A DNA stretch of 51,291 nt. Source: an uncultured Clostridia bacterium (GTDB taxonomy: Bacteria > Bacillota > Clostridia > Christensenellales > UBA1242). Both the position numbers and the translations under genes were made by a program. The DNA is taken from the NCBI GenBank assembly GCA_937907645.1, contig CALCWV010000065.1, positions 1-51,291 of the forward strand, written 5' to 3'. The notes under the pieces were generated by a model. The model did not search any database. It was given only the letters and a program-made list of their open reading frames with translations, and had not been told where the DNA came from. Numbering within the stretch: position 1 is the stretch's first letter; each line of letters starts with the position of its first letter. Below are positions 1 to 51,291 of the stretch, one piece after another.

Positions 1-95
1 AAAAACTTGCCACTGGCAACTTTTCTTAACGCGTCGCCCCCTCCGTCTCCACCAAGCAAAGATAAAAAGGACGTTAAAGTCCTTTTTTCTTTGCA

Positions 96-288
96 ATGAA
101 ATTGAACTTTACGGTTCAGTGATATTGCTACGCAATGCAATTCAACAAGTTGAATGAAATTTTTGCTGTCGCAAAAGTTAAGGCTTAATTTCATATCATT
201 ATGAGCGAAGCGAATAATATCATTGCGAATGAAACGAGTGATATCATTGACCAAGCGTCAATATCATTGGCGGAACGCCAATATCATT
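96..288. repeat. Tandem array of nine short, sequence-distinct hairpins punctuated by an AT-rich 8-mer
   Basis: ATATCATT starts at 193, 217, 241, 261 and 281 (spacing 24, 24, 20, 20). Degenerate forms ATGAAATT, GTGATATT, ATGCAATT and ATGAAATT start at 96, 119, 135 and 154. Hairpins include TGAAC/GTTCA (103-118), ATTGC/GCAAT (124-136), ATTCAAC/GTTGAAT (140-155), TTTTGC/GCAAAA (161-176), ATTAT..GCGAAGC..ATAAT (198-218), 219-242, ATTGAC/GTCAAT (246-262) and ATTGGCG/CGCCAAT (266-282). Confidence 0.6.
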
Positions 289-7455: not shown

Positions 7456-7647
7456 GCTAGCGCGCCCTTATGGGCTTGCTTAGCATACCCGCATAAAGAA
7501 ATTCTTTTTCAGCCTTTTGTCCTTTTAAGAACCACAATGAGGAACCTCTATTGGGAACCTTAAAATGCCAAAATCCAAGAAAAATATTTTCCTTTCTGCT
7601 GCCATATTACATTGAAAGAAGATAATCTTGAAATTATCTTTTTTTTC
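7456..7647 (+). ncRNA. Candidate structured RNA module M1 (copy B) with its own intrinsic terminator
   Basis: Collinear with 31325-31479 (+) and 31853-32006 (-), with compensatory changes in at least four helices. Terminator AAGATAAT/ATTATCTT plus T-run at 7619-7647. Confidence 0.45.
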
Positions 7648-7769
7648 TAAAATATTTATCAAAGGCCGACCGTCGAGCCTCGCTCTGCTTTCTTTTTTGG
7701 CTAGTACATTCTAAATTATTAATTTAAAATCATTGAGTTTAAATAATCTAGTTAAATGTAATTTTTTAT

Positions 7770-7798
7770 TTTACAAAAAAAGGTTGGAATGATATAAT
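7770..7798 (+). promoter_or_regulatory. Extended -10 promoter of recX, predicting a leaderless mRNA
   Basis: TTTACA, 17-nt spacer ending in TGA, TATAAT (7793-7798). The A of the recX ATG (7805) is exactly 7 nt after the -10 box and there is no SD. Confidence 0.6.
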
Positions 7799-7804
7799 AT
7801 ATTT

Positions 7805-8437
7805 ATGATAATAACAGAAATCAAAAAAATTGGGAAGGGGAATAGATACTCGTTATATATTGACGAGGAGTTCGTTGGTGCGTTTGAAGCGGAAATCCTT
7901 GCAAAGAATAAACTCAAAACAGGACAGGAACTTTCACATGACGAGTTGCAGAGATTAAAGATTGAAAATGGAGATTATGCCTCATTCGATAGAGCTCTGT
8001 CAGTATTAGAAAAGAGCATGAAAACAGAAAAAGGTATTCGTGACTTCCTTATGCAAAAAGGTTATCCGGAGGAGTGCATCGATCGATCTGTTGAGAAACT
8101 CAAAGAGTATGGATACATCAATGACGAATTTTTTGCAGAAAGTTACATTAAGACATACTCATTTAGTAAGGGAAAGAAAAAAATTAAGTATGAGCTTATA
8201 TCTAAGGGCGTGGACAAGCGGATTATAGATGAAAAGCTTGCAGACCTTATTGAAGAAGATGAGGAAATTGAATCCTGCAAGAGGCTAGCTAAAAAGTACT
8301 TAAAAAACAAGGTCATTGATGAGAAAACAAGGAATAAACTTTCAAATCACCTTGTAAGCAAAGGCTTTGGATATGATGTAATTTCAAAGGTTGTAAGGGA
8401 AGTCATAAAGGAGGCTGAAGATGAGAGTTGGGATTGA
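7805..8437 (+). CDS. recX: Recombination regulator RecX
   Basis: 210 aa with a RecX-like three-repeat helical architecture (RALSVLE..., FL..KGY..., L..KGF). Confidence 0.8.
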   Translation: MIITEIKKIGKGNRYSLYIDEEFVGAFEAEILAKNKLKTGQELSHDELQRLKIENGDYASFDRALSVLEKSMKTEKGIRDFLMQKGYPEECIDRSVEKLKEYGYINDEFFAESYIKTYSFSKGKKKIKYELISKGVDKRIIDEKLADLIEEDEEIESCKRLAKKYLKNKVIDEKTRNKLSNHLVSKGFGYDVISKVVREVIKEAEDESWD

Positions 8438-11305: not shown

Positions 11306-11432
11306 AAAAAAGGATAGTACATGGACTATCCTAAATCGCAGCTATATGCCAGCAGAAAGGTTAAAGCTGATGCAGCCTGAGGTTTCGTGCGGCAAATTGT
11401 TTTATTTGAAAAATTGGATGAAATGCAAGGCT
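11306..11432 (-). ncRNA. Shortened variant of module M1 (copy D) with terminator
   Basis: The minus strand reads GCCTTGC...CCGCACGAAA...TTCTGCTGGCATAT followed by terminator AGGATAGT/ACTATCCT plus T-run (11306-11332). It lies 3' of rplL in the same orientation. Confidence 0.35.
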
Positions 11433-11434
11433 CA

Positions 11435-11488
11435 CTGTTCAGCACAGGCAGGAGTTTAGCTCTCTAAATGACTGTCTGGGCTGAACAG
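11435..11488 (+). repeat. H-module hairpin with tandem GA/GA internal loop
   Basis: CTGTTCAGC-a-CAGGCAG-GA-GTTTAG-ctct-CTAAAT-GA-CTGTCTG-g-GCTGAACAG. Related copies are at 31559-31598, 32056-32095 and, inverted, 31291-31320. Confidence 0.6.
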
Positions 11489-11534
11489 TAGCAAACGCAG
11501 CAGTTCGCCAATTTTTCAAATAAAAAAACAAAAA

Positions 11535-12512: not shown

Positions 12513-12680
12513 CTTTGTCTCCTTTTTATAATTTTGTGTTTCAAGCAAAATAAAATCTCTACGCCATAAGGAAAGGCATAGAGATTGGAAGAATCTATAT
12601 ATACACCTTATCCTCGGCAAGTTTACGTTAGTAAGTTATGCTTTCGCACTTGCTGTCTATGGAAAGACTTTATTTTACGT
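12513..12680 (-). promoter_or_regulatory. rplJ 5' leader, probably the L10(L12)4 autoregulatory leader
   Basis: About 165-nt untranslated leader between a consensus promoter and rplJ. The assignment rests on position and known Firmicute biology. I did not verify the structure. Confidence 0.45.
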
Positions 12681-31257: not shown

Positions 31258-31261
31258 AAGC

Positions 31262-31320
31262 TTCGCTATGCGTTGTTTACTGCTGTCTATCCCAGACAGT
31301 CATTTACGGGGTTGTAAACT
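31262..31320 (-). repeat. Inverted, 3'-truncated copy of the H/X module
   Basis: 31291-31320 is the exact reverse complement of 32067-32096. On the plus strand it ends in GTAAACTTTTT and could terminate the vanW-family gene. Confidence 0.6.
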
Positions 31321-31324
31321 TTTT

Positions 31325-31479
31325 GCTAGCGCGGGGCTAATGGCCCCTTGCTTCGCATAACCGCACAAATCAATTCTTTTTCAGTATTTTCTCTGTTTCA
31401 GAACCGCCGATGAGGAACCTCTATCGAGAACCTGAAACAAAGAAACTACAAGAAAAATCTCTTGATTTCTGCTGCCATA
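31325..31479 (+). ncRNA. Candidate structured RNA module M1 (copy E1)
   Basis: Collinear with 7456-7606 and with the reverse complement of 31853-32006. It lies 3' of the vanW-family gene in the same orientation. Confidence 0.45.
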
Positions 31480-31558
31480 TCTCTGCGATTGATTTTTATA
31501 AAAACACATATAAAAATTTTAGATAAAAAATCGAGTGAGTCACGAGGCTCGCTGTTCT

Positions 31559-31598
31559 CCTCTGGAATGAGTTTAGTTCTCTAAATGATTTTCAGAGG
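31559..31598 (+). repeat. H-module hairpin
   Basis: CCTCTGGAA-tGA-GTTTAG-ttct-CTAAAT-GA-TTTTCAGAGG, followed by a GTGAATCGC...TTTTTTTCTAAAAT tail like that at 32100-32138. Confidence 0.55.
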
Positions 31599-31655
31599 GG
31601 GACAGCAGAAACAATGTGAATCGCTTAATTTTTTTCTAAAATCAGGCTCTGCAGT

Positions 31656-31699
31656 CAGTTCAGGCAGGCGCATAGTGACCTATGTAACTGTCTGAACTG
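31656..31699. repeat. Long hairpin sharing the CAGGCAG/CTGTCTG stem of the H module
   Basis: 12-bp stem CAGTTCAGGCAG/CTGTCTGAACTG enclosing the inner hairpin CATAG/CTATG. Confidence 0.55.
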
Positions 31700-31731
31700 A
31701 ATGCTAGAAACAAAGCTATGCAAACTTTTGA

Positions 31732-31785
31732 GGCTCGCGCTAGTTATTTTAATTTTAGAAAAAAAAGGCGAGTCGCTAGGCTCGG
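31732..31785 (+). repeat. 54-bp perfect direct repeat, copy 1
   Basis: Identical to 31995-32048 (GGCTCGCGCTAGTTATTTTAATTTTAGAAAAAAAAGGCGAGTCGCTAGGCTCGG). Confidence 0.85.
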
Positions 31786-31811
31786 TGCTTTTAAATTGAA
31801 TGTATTTTAAA

Positions 31812-32006
31812 CAAAAAAAGGATAATACGAAAATTATCCTTTTTCATAGAATTATGACAGCAGAAATCAAAAGATTTTTCTTGTAGTTTCTTTGTTTCAG
31901 GTTCCCGGTAGAGTTCACTCATCGGAGGTTCTGAAACGGAGAAAATACTGAAAAAGAATTGATTTATGCGGCGATAAACTGAGCAAGAGCCATTGGCTCG
32001 CGCTAG
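31812..32006 (-). ncRNA. Candidate structured RNA module M1 (copy E2) with intrinsic terminator
   Basis: M1 body on the minus strand at 32006-31853, then terminator GGATAAT/ATTATCC (31820-31839) plus a U-run. It lies 3' of tuf in the same orientation, with no strong terminator in between. Confidence 0.45.
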
Positions 32007-32048
32007 TTATTTTAATTTTAGAAAAAAAAGGCGAGTCGCTAGGCTCGG
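31995..32048 (+). repeat. 54-bp perfect direct repeat, copy 2
   Basis: Identical to 31732-31785. Its first 12 nt are the 5' end of M1 copy E2. Confidence 0.85.
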
Positions 32049-32055
32049 CATTTCT

Positions 32056-32137
32056 CCCAGGCAGGAGTTTACAACCCCGTAAATGACTGTCTGGGAAAAG
32101 TGACAGAAACGACGCGAATCGCTTTCTTTTTCTAAAA
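32056..32137 (+). repeat. H/X module (hairpin plus GCGAATCGC..TTTTTCTAAAAT tail) abutting the tuf stop codon
   Basis: CCCAGGCAG-GA-GTTTAC-aacccc-GTAAAT-GA-CTGTCTGGG at 32056-32095. Confidence 0.6.
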
Positions 32138-46505: not shown

Positions 46506-49500
46506 TTATGCCCAGTGGATCCATAAATCATCCAAATAGATCCATTCTCCATTTGCATCAGTTATTTGCTGTCCGTTCCATTTTAAATTTTTCTCCAAAT
46601 AATGCTCAGAAGAGTCCCATCGATGAATATTCGTTTCACCGCCGCTGCTTGTTGCGTTTATGTGGTAAGAAGAATCTTTTCCAGTTGGTGATTGTAGAGG
46701 AACTTTGTTTCCATATGAAACCGTCTGATAAATAGCAAAATTTGTAAAGCTTATAAATTGATTTTTACTCCAATTGGTATATGCAGTTAATGCATGATAA
46801 CTATTTGGATTTAAGTTTGAGTCATATTTAAATTCGAAGGTCATACTAACCTTTGTCAGACTAGAACTTAATGTTACCGTCTTATTAGGCCTCTCATACT
46901 TTGATGTGCTTGGGTTAAACATCTCTCCTGCCTCAAATTCTAATGTAACTGTTTTCCCAGGCGTTCCAGTAACATCAAACTCCAGGGTATATTCTTGATT
47001 TTGAAGCATATAATTTTGTAAATTTTGAATAATTGGTCCCGATTGATCTGCCGTCCCCAAACTTGTCCATCTCGCGACTGCGCCTGAATTTTCAATTGTC
47101 CATGTCTTATCTTTATCTTCATTATAAGAATGTAGAAGTAGCGAATTATCTCCTTCGTTGAACTTATACTGGCCATAAAGTCCAAGCACACCAAGTTTAA
47201 AAGTACGTCGTTGAAGTTTAAGCGTCAATGTCAAATTGGCATCTTGTGGATAATGCTCAAAATATTGTACCAAATAATAGAATCCATTTACTAAGTAAGA
47301 GAGAGGATTTCCTTTTTCATCAGTATAACCAGATTCATATTTTCCTCCTATCGGATTTTCCCCCCAGTATCCTACAAGTGAATAACCTGTTGGAGGCGTA
47401 GGCATCGTTATTCTAGTTATTTGATTTGTACAAGCCGCATTCGAATAGAGTTTATTAACACCTCTTCTTAAATAAATAGTTGATGTCCCTCCTGAAGCCC
47501 CATTTTTATCAAGATTTACAGTTACAACATTTCCAACCCATTTTGCTGATAGAGTTTTATCCGATGCAAGGTATTTATAAACATAATCATATTTCACTGT
47601 TCCGGATGATGAAGTTGTTCCAGCTGTGAATGAACCAGTTCCGGCATTTGTATAGAAAGTTCCACTAGTTAAATCAAATAATCCAATTACTCCGTCTGAA
47701 TTTCTTTTTACAGGAATATAATCACGAATCAAAGTACGGTTCTTCCAAACCTTAAAAGCATATAGTTTCATTTTCGAGAAATTATCTGGATTACCTGCTC
47801 GATTATCTGCAAATATTGATAAAGAAGAATTAGATTGTCTTGTAATAGTAGTCGTGATATTATAATCATATGTTGCTGGTCCGCGAATACTAAACTTTTT
47901 TTCTAGTCCATCCAGCGTAATACTTGTTCTTCCTGTAGTCGCTGAAACAGTAGATGCCGTCCAATTTCCTATGCCATCTTTATAAGCAAAAGCCCATTTT
48001 GCATCTCCATTTATATATACCCCAAATGATACATTATTTGAAGTATCTGTGTCAAATGTATGTCCAAAAGGTCGTTGTTGACGAGTCGTTACATCTGTAT
48101 ATTGGAAATCTGCAAACACCTTAATGTCGCTTGTAGTATAAACTCCGGTATCAATATATTGAGTTCCCGTAGATTGAATATAGTCAAGTATCGTATATCC
48201 ATCTATGTTTCCATACCAGCCATTGAATGTATAACCCGTTCTTGTTGGCGTTGGAAGAGTTTCATAGAAAGCTCCATAAGTATATTTTCTTGAAGAAGGA
48301 GAAACACTTCCCCCATTTGCATTAAATGTTGCAGTGTATGTTATTGGAGTCCAATCAGAGTAAATATTTACATTACCTGCATGAATCCAATTCCCTTTTG
48401 CATCCGTATATCCACTAACATTATTTTTCACATTTCCGCTTCCATCGGTTAATTGACTTCCATTTAAACACCAACCCTTGAAACTAAATCCCGCTAACGT
48501 AGGAGTAGAAGGTATTTTTGTTTTGGAGCCATATGTTTGTGTAATTGAATTCAAAGTATTAAGCTTAATAAGTTGAATACTCACTTTACAATTTGTAAAT
48601 TTATATCCCCATTTTCCGTCAGAGTTGGCAGCTGAACCTTTCCAAATCCAGAAACTACAAGTTTCAATTTCTTGCTGATTTTGCTCTGAGATTGTTACAA
48701 CTCCTGAAATCCAAGTTTCACCAACTGCTGGTAATCTTCCAAGGCTTTGATAAACACGGGCACCAGACAAGTTAGTTCTATCTCCACGTTTAAATTCGAA
48801 TGCTAAACAAGCTCCCGTTCCCAATCTTTCAAACGATCCGTCGAGGGTACTTACTTTAAACGCATATCTCTCTCCAGCTTTAACTCTCAATCCACGTAGA
48901 AGGCCAATCGTAATATTTGCATTTGTCATTGAACCATTTAAAGTCATACTTGCTCCGTCTGAACTTGGAGTAATAGTTATACCTTCTTCTGTTCGTGCTG
49001 TATTTGACCATGTTCCTCCACCATTCAGAGGTTGATAATTATATACTGATGCTGTATATGTATTCGCCGTCCACTGAGGATAAACTGTTGTGTCTGAGGC
49101 TTTTACATATTTTCTATTTGAATCTGTATACCCAGAAAGTGTTTTAATCTTTCCGTCTGCTCCTATAAGCTGTGAACCGCCTGTTTCACTCGTATAATAT
49201 CCGTTGAATGTATAGCCCGTCTTGCTTACTATTGGATTGTTGTCGCAAATTTGATCGTATGTCGCCAATTTGGAAAGCCTGATATTTTTTACATATAGAA
49301 TGTCTCCAACTTCATAAGGGGCATCAAATGTTAACGATTTCCATTGAACATTTTTATCATATGTAAAATCTATCATTCTTGTCTCATAAGTTGTTGATAT
49401 ACTGATTTCTTTTATTAGATAATTTCCCGCCTCAATCCTCATATCTACTACGCTTAATTCTCTGCTCGATTTAATATCAACAGTTAAGCGATATCTTTCG

Positions 49501-51291
49501 CCGTTGACCATATATGGAGAAAAACCGTTAAAATAAACTCTTCCCTTTGGATAAGTTGTATCCACAGCTGTTATCTCCCACTTATATTCTCCCGACCCTG
49601 ATGTAGGCCTTGTAACCGTGCAACCATTTGTCTTTATTCTTGTCTGATTAGAGTATGCAGCAGGTAAAACTGGAAGAATTCCGTTATAAGTTATTGGATA
49701 TTCATTCGCAGTCCACTGTGCATAAAGATTTACAACCCCTCCATTCGTTGAAGTTAAGTTCTTTACGCTTGCTTGGTTAGCGTGTGCAACTGCTCCTGTT
49801 GCAGAGGTCGCCCAGCCTGCAAAAGTATAACCTGTTCTCGTAAAGGCATTTGCTGTTAAATTCTTCGCTGCGTCATATGTGTGGGTGGAATTATTCATTG
49901 TGCCCGCTCCACCATTGGCGTTGTATTTTACTTGATAGGTATTTGGTATCCAAAGGGCTTTGAGGGTTACACTTTCATTCTTGAAGTAGTATGTGTTTGA
50001 ATCCCCAAGTGCATCGTTATTGCTAAATACCTCCGTTGGTCTGATTCCGCTTGTGTTCAGCCATAGATAAGCACAGTTCTTTTCAGGAGTTTTTGGGCCT
50101 GGGATTCCTTCGCTCCACTTATTATAACATCCAAGTGCATAAAACCAACTTGTAATGCCAATTGATCCGTCGATAAATGTCGATGCGGATGAAGATTTGG
50201 CAATCCCCTGAAATGTTGTTGAACTTGTGTTTGAATTCCAATCAATATGAACAGCAGAATATCCTGTGACAGTCCCACTCGTCGCAGGGTTTGACGTCTG
50301 CTTCCACTGATTGTATTTAGTTCCTAAATGGTCATATTGAAGTAAGAATTCAAACGTAGTAAGGTTAAGTTTTGACATTGTGGAGAATTGTGCGTTCCTG
50401 TAAGTATCATTTCTGACCTTTGTCGCTAGATTGTCCGAAGATGAGAAAAGTTGTGTTCCAGAAAGATTGTTGTGATAAAGAATTTGCATCCATTCCTTGC
50501 TGTTTATCGTTTTTGTAGCGATCCACCCCGCGAACGTATATCCCGTTCTTGTCGGGTCGCTAATAGTTGTGGATGTCCCATAGTTTCCGCTAACCGAGGA
50601 ATTTGACGTAGATTCTTTATATTTTCCCCCATTTGGATTAATTGTCACTTTGTAGGTATTCGCCGTCCACTTTGCATAAAGGTTTACGACTGCGCCATTG
50701 GTTGCTGACAAGTTCTTTACGCTTGCCTCGTCATTATGTACTTTATTTCCTGACGCGGATGTCGCCCAACCTGCAAAGGTGTAGCCTGTCCTTGTGAACG
50801 TGTTTTTCGTTAATTTCTTCGCTACATCATATGTGTGAGATGAGTTCGCCATTGAGCCAGATCCGCCGTTAGCATTGTATTTTACTTGATAGCTAATTGC
50901 CGTCCATTTCGCATAGAGGGTTTTATTTCCTGTTGTTTGATACATGTTATTAATACATGTTCCGCTTGCATCTACATATTGTGTTCCAGATCCACCTGTT
51001 GATGTGAAATATCCTTTAAAGGTGTATCCTGTTCTAGTCGGAACAGTGATCTTGTAATTAGCAAGTCCAGAGGTACAAGCTTCATTTGTATAATAATAGT
51101 AAGGTGATGACTGCTCATATTTATACCAAATATTAGTCGTTCCTCCCGTTCCACTCTGCTTGTCAAATGTTACTTTGTAAACATTTGGCGACCACTGTGC
51201 ATAAATTGTATGATCCTTCGTAGAACTTACAACAGCTGTGTCTTTAACCTGTGTTCCACCACTCATTGCTGTAAACCATCCTTTAAACGTA
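46506..51291 (-). CDS. Giant modular surface/adhesin-like protein with Listeria-Bacteroides (Flg_new) repeats, partial with the 5' end outside the window
   Basis: The frame stays open to the window edge (TFKGWFTAMSGG...). It has many copies of the TRTGYTF.GW......(L/V)YA.WT repeat, interleaved with unrelated beta-rich ~150-250-aa domains. Confidence 0.85.
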   Translation of the reverse strand, partial: TFKGWFTAMSGGTQVKDTAVVSSTKDHTIYAQWSPNVYKVTFDKQSGTGGTTNIWYKYEQSSPYYYYTNEACTSGLANYKITVPTRTGYTFKGYFTSTGGSGTQYVDASGTCINNMYQTTGNKTLYAKWTAISYQVKYNANGGSGSMANSSHTYDVAKKLTKNTFTRTGYTFAGWATSASGNKVHNDEASVKNLSATNGAVVNLYAKWTANTYKVTINPNGGKYKESTSNSSVSGNYGTSTTISDPTRTGYTFAGWIATKTINSKEWMQILYHNNLSGTQLFSSSDNLATKVRNDTYRNAQFSTMSKLNLTTFEFLLQYDHLGTKYNQWKQTSNPATSGTVTGYSAVHIDWNSNTSSTTFQGIAKSSSASTFIDGSIGITSWFYALGCYNKWSEGIPGPKTPEKNCAYLWLNTSGIRPTEVFSNNDALGDSNTYYFKNESVTLKALWIPNTYQVKYNANGGAGTMNNSTHTYDAAKNLTANAFTRTGYTFAGWATSATGAVAHANQASVKNLTSTNGGVVNLYAQWTANEYPITYNGILPVLPAAYSNQTRIKTNGCTVTRPTSGSGEYKWEITAVDTTYPKGRVYFNGFSPYMVNGERYRLTVDIKSSRELSVVDMRIEAGNYLIKEISISTTYETRMIDFTYDKNVQWKSLTFDAPYEVGDILYVKNIRLSKLATYDQICDNNPIVSKTGYTFNGYYTSETGGSQLIGADGKIKTLSGYTDSNRKYVKASDTTVYPQWTANTYTASVYNYQPLNGGGTWSNTARTEEGITITPSSDGASMTLNGSMTNANITIGLLRGLRVKAGERYAFKVSTLDGSFERLGTGACLAFEFKRGDRTNLSGARVYQSLGRLPAVGETWISGVVTISEQNQQEIETCSFWIWKGSAANSDGKWGYKFTNCKVSIQLIKLNTLNSITQTYGSKTKIPSTPTLAGFSFKGWCLNGSQLTDGSGNVKNNVSGYTDAKGNWIHAGNVNIYSDWTPITYTATFNANGGSVSPSSRKYTYGAFYETLPTPTRTGYTFNGWYGNIDGYTILDYIQSTGTQYIDTGVYTTSDIKVFADFQYTDVTTRQQRPFGHTFDTDTSNNVSFGVYINGDAKWAFAYKDGIGNWTASTVSATTGRTSITLDGLEKKFSIRGPATYDYNITTTITRQSNSSLSIFADNRAGNPDNFSKMKLYAFKVWKNRTLIRDYIPVKRNSDGVIGLFDLTSGTFYTNAGTGSFTAGTTSSSGTVKYDYVYKYLASDKTLSAKWVGNVVTVNLDKNGASGGTSTIYLRRGVNKLYSNAACTNQITRITMPTPPTGYSLVGYWGENPIGGKYESGYTDEKGNPLSYLVNGFYYLVQYFEHYPQDANLTLTLKLQRRTFKLGVLGLYGQYKFNEGDNSLLLHSYNEDKDKTWTIENSGAVARWTSLGTADQSGPIIQNLQNYMLQNQEYTLEFDVTGTPGKTVTLEFEAGEMFNPSTSKYERPNKTVTLSSSLTKVSMTFEFKYDSNLNPNSYHALTAYTNWSKNQFISFTNFAIYQTVSYGNKVPLQSPTGKDSSYHINATSSGGETNIHRWDSSEHYLEKNLKWNGQQITDANGEWIYLDDLWIHWA

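Follow-up and report, generated by a model that had tools for sequence, protein, structure and literature searches.

In the window analysed here, the whole 51,291-nt stretch of contig CALCWV010000065.1 from an uncultured Clostridia bacterium, an element that we call M1 recurs in the spacers between genes. One copy lies between the UPF0029/YigZ-N gene and recX, two lie in opposite orientations between the convergent VanW and tuf genes, and a reduced variant is found 3' of rplL. M1 is a real, hairpin-forming interspersed repeat of ~155 bases with strong compensatory base changes. The copies, scored in bits with our covariance model R1, and the T modules attached to them are as follows.

7456..7611, + strand: M1 copy B, with the 5' GC hairpin at 7456-7484 followed by the long hairpin; 160.6 bits
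7612..7650, + strand: T module on the 3' end of copy B, an A/T-flanked hairpin consisting of ttgaaagaAGATAATcttgaaATTATCT and T8
31325..31484, + strand: M1 copy E1, which has the X linker after it in place of T; 184.1 bits
31848..32007, − strand: M1 copy E2; 172.1 bits
31811..31847, − strand: T module of E2, GGATAATtttcgtATTATCC and T7
11333..11400, − strand: mini-M1, with the basal helix and the CTTTCTGCTGGCATAT end retained and the apex swapped for other sequence
11306..11332, − strand: T module of mini-M1, AGGATAGTccatgtACTATCCT and T6

The three full copies are collinear over ~155 nt with a mean column identity of 85%, far above chance, and their folding z-scores range from −4.2 to −6.1 against dinucleotide shuffles. 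A preliminary description of this DNA had counted four collinear copies. Three of these stand at full length, and the fourth, placed at 11333-11432 (−), is treated here as a mini-variant because, of the M1 features, it shares no more than the basal helix (GCCGCAC.GAAA / UUUC.UGCUGGC), the CTGCTGGCATAT end and the terminator; it was missed both by the nhmmer profile and by model R1. Every conserved sequence block listed in that description is present in the window copies, as are all of the stem variants (GGGGC/GCCCC, GCCC/GGGC, GAGCC/GGCTC, CTGTTTCAG/CTGAAACA versus CTTTTAAG/CTTAAAA, and CGAT/ATCG versus CAAT/ATTG), and the A/T-flanked hairpins AGATAAT/ATTATCT, GGATAAT/ATTATCC and GGATAGT/ACTATCC come after three of the four elements.

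The family extends beyond the window. Metagenome contigs were scanned with a pattern of the 3' block, giving 16 loci, and a profile search of these loci returned 15 further distinct full-length copies as well as fragments, which brings the total to 18 and bears out the earlier view of a repeated element. Model R1 gives 154–188 bits for all 18 distinct copies. They are young (~90% identical), and two subfamilies can be distinguished among the changes of the long hairpin. The loci and their relatives have a Firmicute-like context (large signal recognition particle RNA, T-box, GerA, CotH) and carry pig-gut sample labels. In a collection of 185,579 species, each represented by one genome, the exact M1 pattern gave a single chance match, inside a coding region of a Treponema metagenome-assembled genome, so the family is rare or the source species lies outside that collection. 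Nothing similar to M1 was found in phage, plasmid and viral collections, and such an origin is unsupported.

M1 is built of a GC hairpin of ~31 nt followed by an imperfect hairpin, or palindrome, of ~110–125 nt. In the model-fitted alignment of the 18 copies (A5), 96.7% of 809 pair cells hold standard pairs, and both sides have changed in 18 of the 45 pairs, covering 74 cells; the statement that compensatory changes uphold the fold is thus supported, for both hairpins. None of 500 column shuffles of A5 matched the observed values of pairing and double changes, and sliding the partner columns by 1–3 lowered the pairing to 37–53%. An independent run of RNAalifold on a MAFFT alignment gave 14 compensated pairs. 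Many changes in the long hairpin split along the two subfamilies, so the independent events there are fewer than the cell count.

Column identity is 73% in the 5' hairpin versus 91% in the long hairpin. At least eight apical stems occur in the 5' hairpin, nearly all of them fully complementary (GGGGC/GCCCC, GAGCC/GGCTC, GCCC/GGGC, GGGTC/GACCC, GCGTT/AACGC, AGCC/GGCT, GTCC/GGAC and GAGC/GCTC), and its outer stem changes in concert, from GCTAGC...GCTTAGC to ACTGGC...GCCTAGT or GCTGAC...GTCTAGC. The outer arms of the long hairpin (CATAACCGCACAAATCAA / TTGATTTCTGCTGCCATAT) form a degenerate inverted repeat that ends ...ATTTCTGCTGYCATAT, and the GC hairpin sits outside this inverted repeat. Three RGAACC boxes (AGAACC, GGAACC and RGAACC), for example at window 31398-31435, occupy the apical loops and are nearly invariant in the 18 copies; they could be a protein-binding motif. 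A small open reading frame (ORF) within M1 (ATGAGGAAC...) was rejected as a coding candidate: it is open for 37 codons in E1, but in the other subtype a stop ends it after 8.

As suspected previously, M1 has no counterpart in Rfam: cmscan against Rfam 15 returned no match at the gathering threshold for the copies in the window or in the 16 loci. At E ≤ 10, the only matches were to microRNA-precursor models, with 20–30 bits against thresholds of 83–117 bits; they occur on both strands, the generic signature of a long hairpin.

M1 copies stand next to unrelated housekeeping genes, including tuf, rplL, rplA, tsf, dnaK, dnaJ, dnaN, fhs, rnpA, prfA, tdk, pnp, nifU and genes of aminoacyl-tRNA synthetases. 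The preliminary description had each copy directly 3' of a gene and always co-oriented with it. Copy B does begin 4 nt past the UPF0029 stop codon, and several copies begin 4–15 nt past a stop codon; however, rplL has a separate terminator (11558-11530) that precedes the repeats, and E2 lies 132 nt 3' of tuf, past a GC hairpin with a T run. The placement of E1 after VanW also needs a qualification, as the independent ERZ27300227 contigs do not reproduce its junctions. Strict co-orientation did not hold: among the 17 copies with a usable neighbour, as judged from simple, crude ORF calls checked with Pfam, 13 are co-oriented with the 5'-side gene and four are antisense (L010, L011:3102, L022:3635 and L022:6245 in our numbering of the loci). 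A role as 5' leader or riboswitch of the downstream gene is ruled out, since E1 and E2 face convergent genes.

The T module, too, is conserved as a repeat: GGATART-N6-AYTATCC, preceded by an A run and followed by T6–8. All 14 distinct T modules are joined to the CTGYCATA end of M1 at a distance of 6–10 nt, and all 14 are gene-distal. Only the T module shows the repeated hairpin with a T run near the 3' ends of coding sequences by which terminator-type repeats are recognised; the body of M1 has no T run. T is present at the 3' end in nine of the 18 copies, all nine co-oriented; of the four antisense copies, three have on the 5' side both an inverted 16-mer (ATATGACAGCAGAAAT) and an inverted T. 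A perfect inverted copy of the 16-mer that ends the long hairpin stands 5' of three of the 18 copies, and this 16-mer is the invariable attachment point of T. In all 12 cases of an M1–T pair, T is gene-distal of M1 whatever the orientation of the latter, so M1 is probably co-transcribed as a structure of the 3' untranslated region (3' UTR) before the terminator, with no particular strand needed. The T module of copy B is probably a bidirectional intrinsic terminator.

In every one of the 18 copies the reverse complement gives the more stable RNA fold, on average −57.5 kcal/mol versus −46.3 kcal/mol for the sense RNA, a difference of ~11 kcal/mol; A.C mismatches of the sense strand are G.U pairs in the antisense. 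Leaving out an invariant G7.T25 wobble (G7.U25 in RNA), which is found in 17 of the 18 copies, the modelled pairs contain 11 G.U cells and 12 A.C cells, i.e., no strand bias. Neither the wobble counts nor the folding energies support the assignment of a sense strand. No shared promoter is present in the 40-nt upstream flanks, which differ from copy to copy, and this removes the independent small RNA (sRNA) gene from the candidates. The proposal of a dedicated strand-specific RNA family is unsupported in view of the four inverted copies, the better antisense fold, the lack of a G.U excess and of a shared promoter, the absence of M1 from sister species, its polymorphism between near-identical strains and its nesting among other palindromic repeats.

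The turnover of M1 can be followed at orthologous sites. Six contigs of species with ~80% nucleotide identity have no spacer between UPF0029 and recX, the stop of the former adjoining or overlapping the ATG of the latter (0–2 nt; gatgatATG, aaaaATGa, ttaaATG), and in ~100 kb of contigs from these sister species, model R1 found no M1. The corresponding spacer in the window is 352 nt long and consists of M1, T, a remnant of a further repeat, Y, and unique DNA. In a 95%-identical strain, Y and not M1 comes right after the same UPF0029 codon; the stop codon is TAG or TGA depending on the strain, which implies that it comes with the insertion. At this site repeats have split the tyrS-UPF0029-recX operon at a tightly coupled junction and added a terminator. 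A promoter-like site, TTTACA-17-TGATATAAT, is present at window 7770-7805 and ends 7 nt before the recX ATG; given this distance and the lack of a Shine–Dalgarno sequence, the recX mRNA is a candidate for a leaderless transcript.

In the dnaN-fhs-rnpA spacers of two close strains (L011 and L022), whose flanks are 93–99% identical, M1 is represented by different subtypes in opposite orientation and with different companion modules. Presence/absence polymorphism at orthologous sites, by which miniature inverted-repeat transposable elements (MITEs) are judged, is seen both here and at UPF0029|recX. A tandem duplication of a half of another repeat, P, together with M1 and T, with a period of 276 nt, lies 3' of prfA at L017:6127-6561 (−), and contigs of several other assemblies terminate at or inside spacers filled with repeats.

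The mosaics in which M1 is nested comprise at least two further families of long-hairpin palindromes, P and Y. Their copies and related units in the window are listed below.

31517..31640, + strand: P palindromic repeat, 124 nt, a hairpin of −55 kcal/mol, travelling together with M1
31643..31725, − strand: Y palindromic repeat, the third family of the mosaic
7668..7702, + strand: remnant of the 3' end of Y (GAGCCTCGCTCTGCTTTCTTTTTT)
31732..31785, + strand: 54-nt unit, 100% identical to 31995-32048

P is a near-perfect palindrome of ~120 nt with a folding energy of −55 to −57 kcal/mol and the ends TTTTAGAAAAAAA or TTTGAAAAATTGG; its other copies are at 11404-11520 and 32017-32133. Y is ~100 nt long, ends with GCAGAGCctcGCTCTGC and a T run in the manner of a terminator, and has a further copy at L022:3317-3416. 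With both strands counted, ~26 matches to P and ~16 to Y were found in the M1-bearing loci, and none to either in those of the sister species. The 54-nt unit opens with the M1 5' end in reverse complement (GGCTCGCGCTAG); its occurrence at 31732-31785 is an orphan 5' stub of M1 without the body, joined to a module of a GC hairpin and an A run.

Both the GC skew and the gene strand flip exactly in the 880-nt repeat mosaic 31258-32137 that separates VanW from tuf. In another assembly, a contig with 99.9% identity (L006:7204-7930) parts from the window at 31464, inside E1, and continues on the same strand with a mini-element of two terminal inverted repeats (TIRs) separated by 8 nt, a T module and then dUTPase. 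This divergence means that the window is chimeric at the inverted E1/E2 pair or that a repeat-mediated inversion has occurred; the join at 31.3–32.1 kb may be chimeric.

The window also contains features that stand apart from the repeats. A match to the Rfam Gut-1 RNA, a motif of gut metagenomes of unknown function, occurs at 94-165 (+) with 52.3 bits at a threshold of 50, and a ribosomal protein L10 leader lies at 12541-12680 (−), upstream of rplJ-rplL, with 69.6 bits. The region 46506-51266 (−) encodes a protein of 1586 aa with Listeria–Bacteroides (Flg_new) repeats; its internal DNA repeats (e.g., 49704-49968 and 50658-50922, 74% identical) are coding and unrelated to M1.

Taken as a whole, M1 is a family with a maintained fold that is absent from the sister species, varies between strains and occurs in both orientations; by insertion or recombination its copies enter spacers distal to genes, and in many cases other repeats. 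In our view, M1 is probably a non-coding, non-autonomous module of lineage-specific, mobile or recombining palindromic mosaic repeats (M1, T, X, P and Y), which have spread recently and whose reshuffling continues between the genes of one uncultured low-GC Firmicute lineage of animal guts. On this reading, transcripts of the neighbouring gene would include M1, whichever way it points, as a long 3'-UTR stem-loop upstream of a terminator. Its role there is probably generic: to hinder 3' exonucleases, to serve as a processing site or to assist termination. Its pairing would then be kept for a reason other than a strand-specific RNA function: the hairpin may be what the mobilising or recombination machinery recognises, intrastrand template switching within the palindrome may copy one arm onto the other, or both transcribed orientations may need a stable stem. 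Among the options offered earlier, an element targeting gene ends comes closest to the evidence, although not in one orientation as supposed, both being found. A 3'-UTR element is plausible insofar as most copies lie 3' of a gene and before a terminator and may be co-transcribed, but a strand-specific role for it is unsupported.

A number of points weigh against the mobile-mosaic interpretation. The target-site duplications of a plain MITE, the alternative that the preliminary description had named, were not found at the M1 borders: no consistent duplication appeared at any border offset for k = 2–8, with the qualification that TA flanks at the borders are inseparable from the conserved sequence of the element. 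A clean TIR pair is present in a minority of copies only, a scan of 35 flanking proteins revealed no transposase, and no cognate transposase or recombinase is known for M1. The invariant G7.T25 wobble and the 13:4 orientation bias could reflect selection of the sense strand at the RNA level, and the RGAACC loop motifs are more conserved than neutral decay predicts, even though the copies are young. The covariation counts derive from an alignment fitted by the covariance model, the orientation census depends on the crude ORF calls, and, because the metagenome copies were retrieved by the 3'-block pattern, both the conservation of this block and the census of copies are biased.

On a rival view, in line with the preliminary description, M1 would be a structured RNA domain that acts in cis, or would give rise to an sRNA derived from the 3' UTR. 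Its transcription would start with the upstream gene and end at T, and its function would be sequence- and strand-specific, such as protein sequestration via the three RGAACC/GGA loop motifs or regulated mRNA stability. The strong covariation in both hairpins, the G7.U25 pair kept in all copies but one, the predominance of co-oriented copies, several of which start just past a stop, the terminator directly after half of the copies, the high conservation of the apical loops and the frequent proximity to highly expressed genes all agree with such a domain. We nevertheless consider it unlikely, as four of the 17 copies are antisense, the antisense fold is the more stable in every copy, G.U is not in excess over A.C, sister species with the same genes lack M1, close strains vary in its presence, subtype and orientation at one spacer, two of the four window elements lie beyond another terminator-like hairpin, and no promoter is conserved. 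A related and rather doubtful proposal combines mobility with function: M1 and T would form a self-propagating mobile 3'-end cassette, in which a stem-loop maintained by covariation and a bidirectional terminator are placed behind housekeeping genes with high expression (tuf, tsf, rplA, rplL, dnaK, prfA, fhs). Such a cassette would be under RNA-level selection for insulation, stabilisation or protein binding via the three RGAACC loops, or would owe its movement to a DNA enzyme that reads hairpins and is of a type as yet undescribed in Firmicutes. In both cases, M1 and T could break up operons, so that new promoters, possibly leaderless, are needed, as for recX.

As a special case of mobility, M1 might be the substrate of a hairpin-recognising transposase or recombinase of single-stranded DNA (IS200/IS605 PATE-like or REP/RAYT-like), an enzyme that reads DNA structure and leaves no target duplication. 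The hypervariable yet always complementary GC hairpin with conserved flanks and a conserved mismatch would fit this, together with the absent target-site duplication, the TAA that precedes nine of 17 copies, the rapid turnover and the lack of a strand-specific RNA signal. We find it quite improbable, however, since M1 has one GC hairpin where IS200/IS605 elements have one at each end, reads GCTAGCG in place of the REP tag GTAG/CGTC, and has no Y1 transposase among the 35 flanking genes. A role for the host at the DNA level as in REP/BIME, whether as sites for nucleoid proteins or gyrase or as recombination hotspots driving rearrangements, including the strand-switch point at 31–32 kb, is very unlikely: the repeats do cluster in mosaics, and the inverted E1/E2 pair falls exactly at the flip of GC skew and gene strand and at the assembly disagreement, but sister species manage without M1 and its content differs between near-identical strains. 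It is scarcely credible that M1 between inverted 16-mers is an invertible switch (inverton). Although the 16-mers flank three copies and orthologous spacers hold opposite orientations, the opposite copies belong to different subtypes with different neighbouring modules and are therefore not a simple flip; most copies have one 16-mer only, M1 contains no promoter, and the same segment in both orientations between fixed inverted repeats was not found.

With M1, at least three families, including two or more companions, join the bacterial small interspersed repeats, of which we found none described in this animal-gut Firmicute lineage. M1 is also a warning for the discovery of non-coding RNA, where even strong compensatory change and a 3'-of-gene position are in themselves insufficient to assign a strand-specific function. 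Repeats of the M1 type remodel operons, as in the splitting of tyrS-UPF0029-recX with the gain of a terminator, and they fragment assemblies; they may be the cause of a chimeric join or inversion in the window itself. Their turnover outpaces point substitutions, so they could serve as strain markers in the manner of BOX-PCR.

Among the known systems, integron attC sites (e.g., VCR) were considered and rejected: the alignment contains no conserved R''/R' core sites (RYYYAAC ... GTTRRRY), and the flanking genes are housekeeping genes. The Correia/NEMIS and ERIC MITEs resemble M1 in being non-coding, co-transcribed, long imperfect palindromes of 100–170 nt that can carry terminator or promoter activity; M1 differs in the absence of a target-site duplication, in having complete terminal inverted repeats in a minority of copies and in that no parent insertion sequence was identified.

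BIMEs, the mosaics of E. coli REP, and the neisserial NIMEs, with units bounded by dRS3 inverted repeats, are combinatorial palindromic mosaics in gene-distal spacers. Roles in the stabilisation of mRNA 3' ends and in termination have been proposed for repeats of this type (in part in PMC3184786). M1 shares with them the mosaic of short palindromic modules, the clustering of these mosaics and a short inverted motif, ATATGRCAGCAGAAAT, that recurs at module borders. Its 31-nt GC hairpin is flanked on the 5' side by GCTAGCG/ACTGGCG, with no GTAG/CGTC tag as in REP/BIME; its modules are far longer (100–160 nt) than BIME/NIME units and AT-rich save for the GC hairpin, and no link to RAYT or a phage integrase is known.

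The pneumococcal repeats BOX, RUP and SPRITE are enriched downstream of genes, SPRITE being terminator-like, and have been judged parasitic, with effects on co-transcribed genes (PMC3049150). Like M1, they are small structured repeats restricted to one species group, with gene-downstream enrichment and, for BOX, modularity (PMC3049150). SPRITE resembles a Rho-independent terminator near the 3' ends of coding sequences, for which the counterpart in M1 is the T module. The sequences of the three are unrelated to M1, which consists of a structured body and a separable terminator module, and the turnover between close strains seems to be faster for M1 than PMC3049150 reports for BOX, RUP and SPRITE.

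The closest analogue is bcr1, a transcribed group A repeat from the Bacillus cereus group with a length of ~155 bp, two independent stem-loops, compensatory changes and a strain-variable distribution (PMC3184786). Size, two stem-loops, compensatory changes, intergenic location, strain-variable distribution and restriction to one lineage are common to bcr1 and M1 (PMC3184786). The two were compared by description, without the bcr1 sequence, and there is no evidence of a sequence relationship; bcr1 has 5-bp direct repeats, whereas none were found for M1, and M1, unlike bcr1, is composed of modules, to which a terminator module and the inverted 16-mers belong. M1 is an interspersed repeat of a known type that stands outside any named family.

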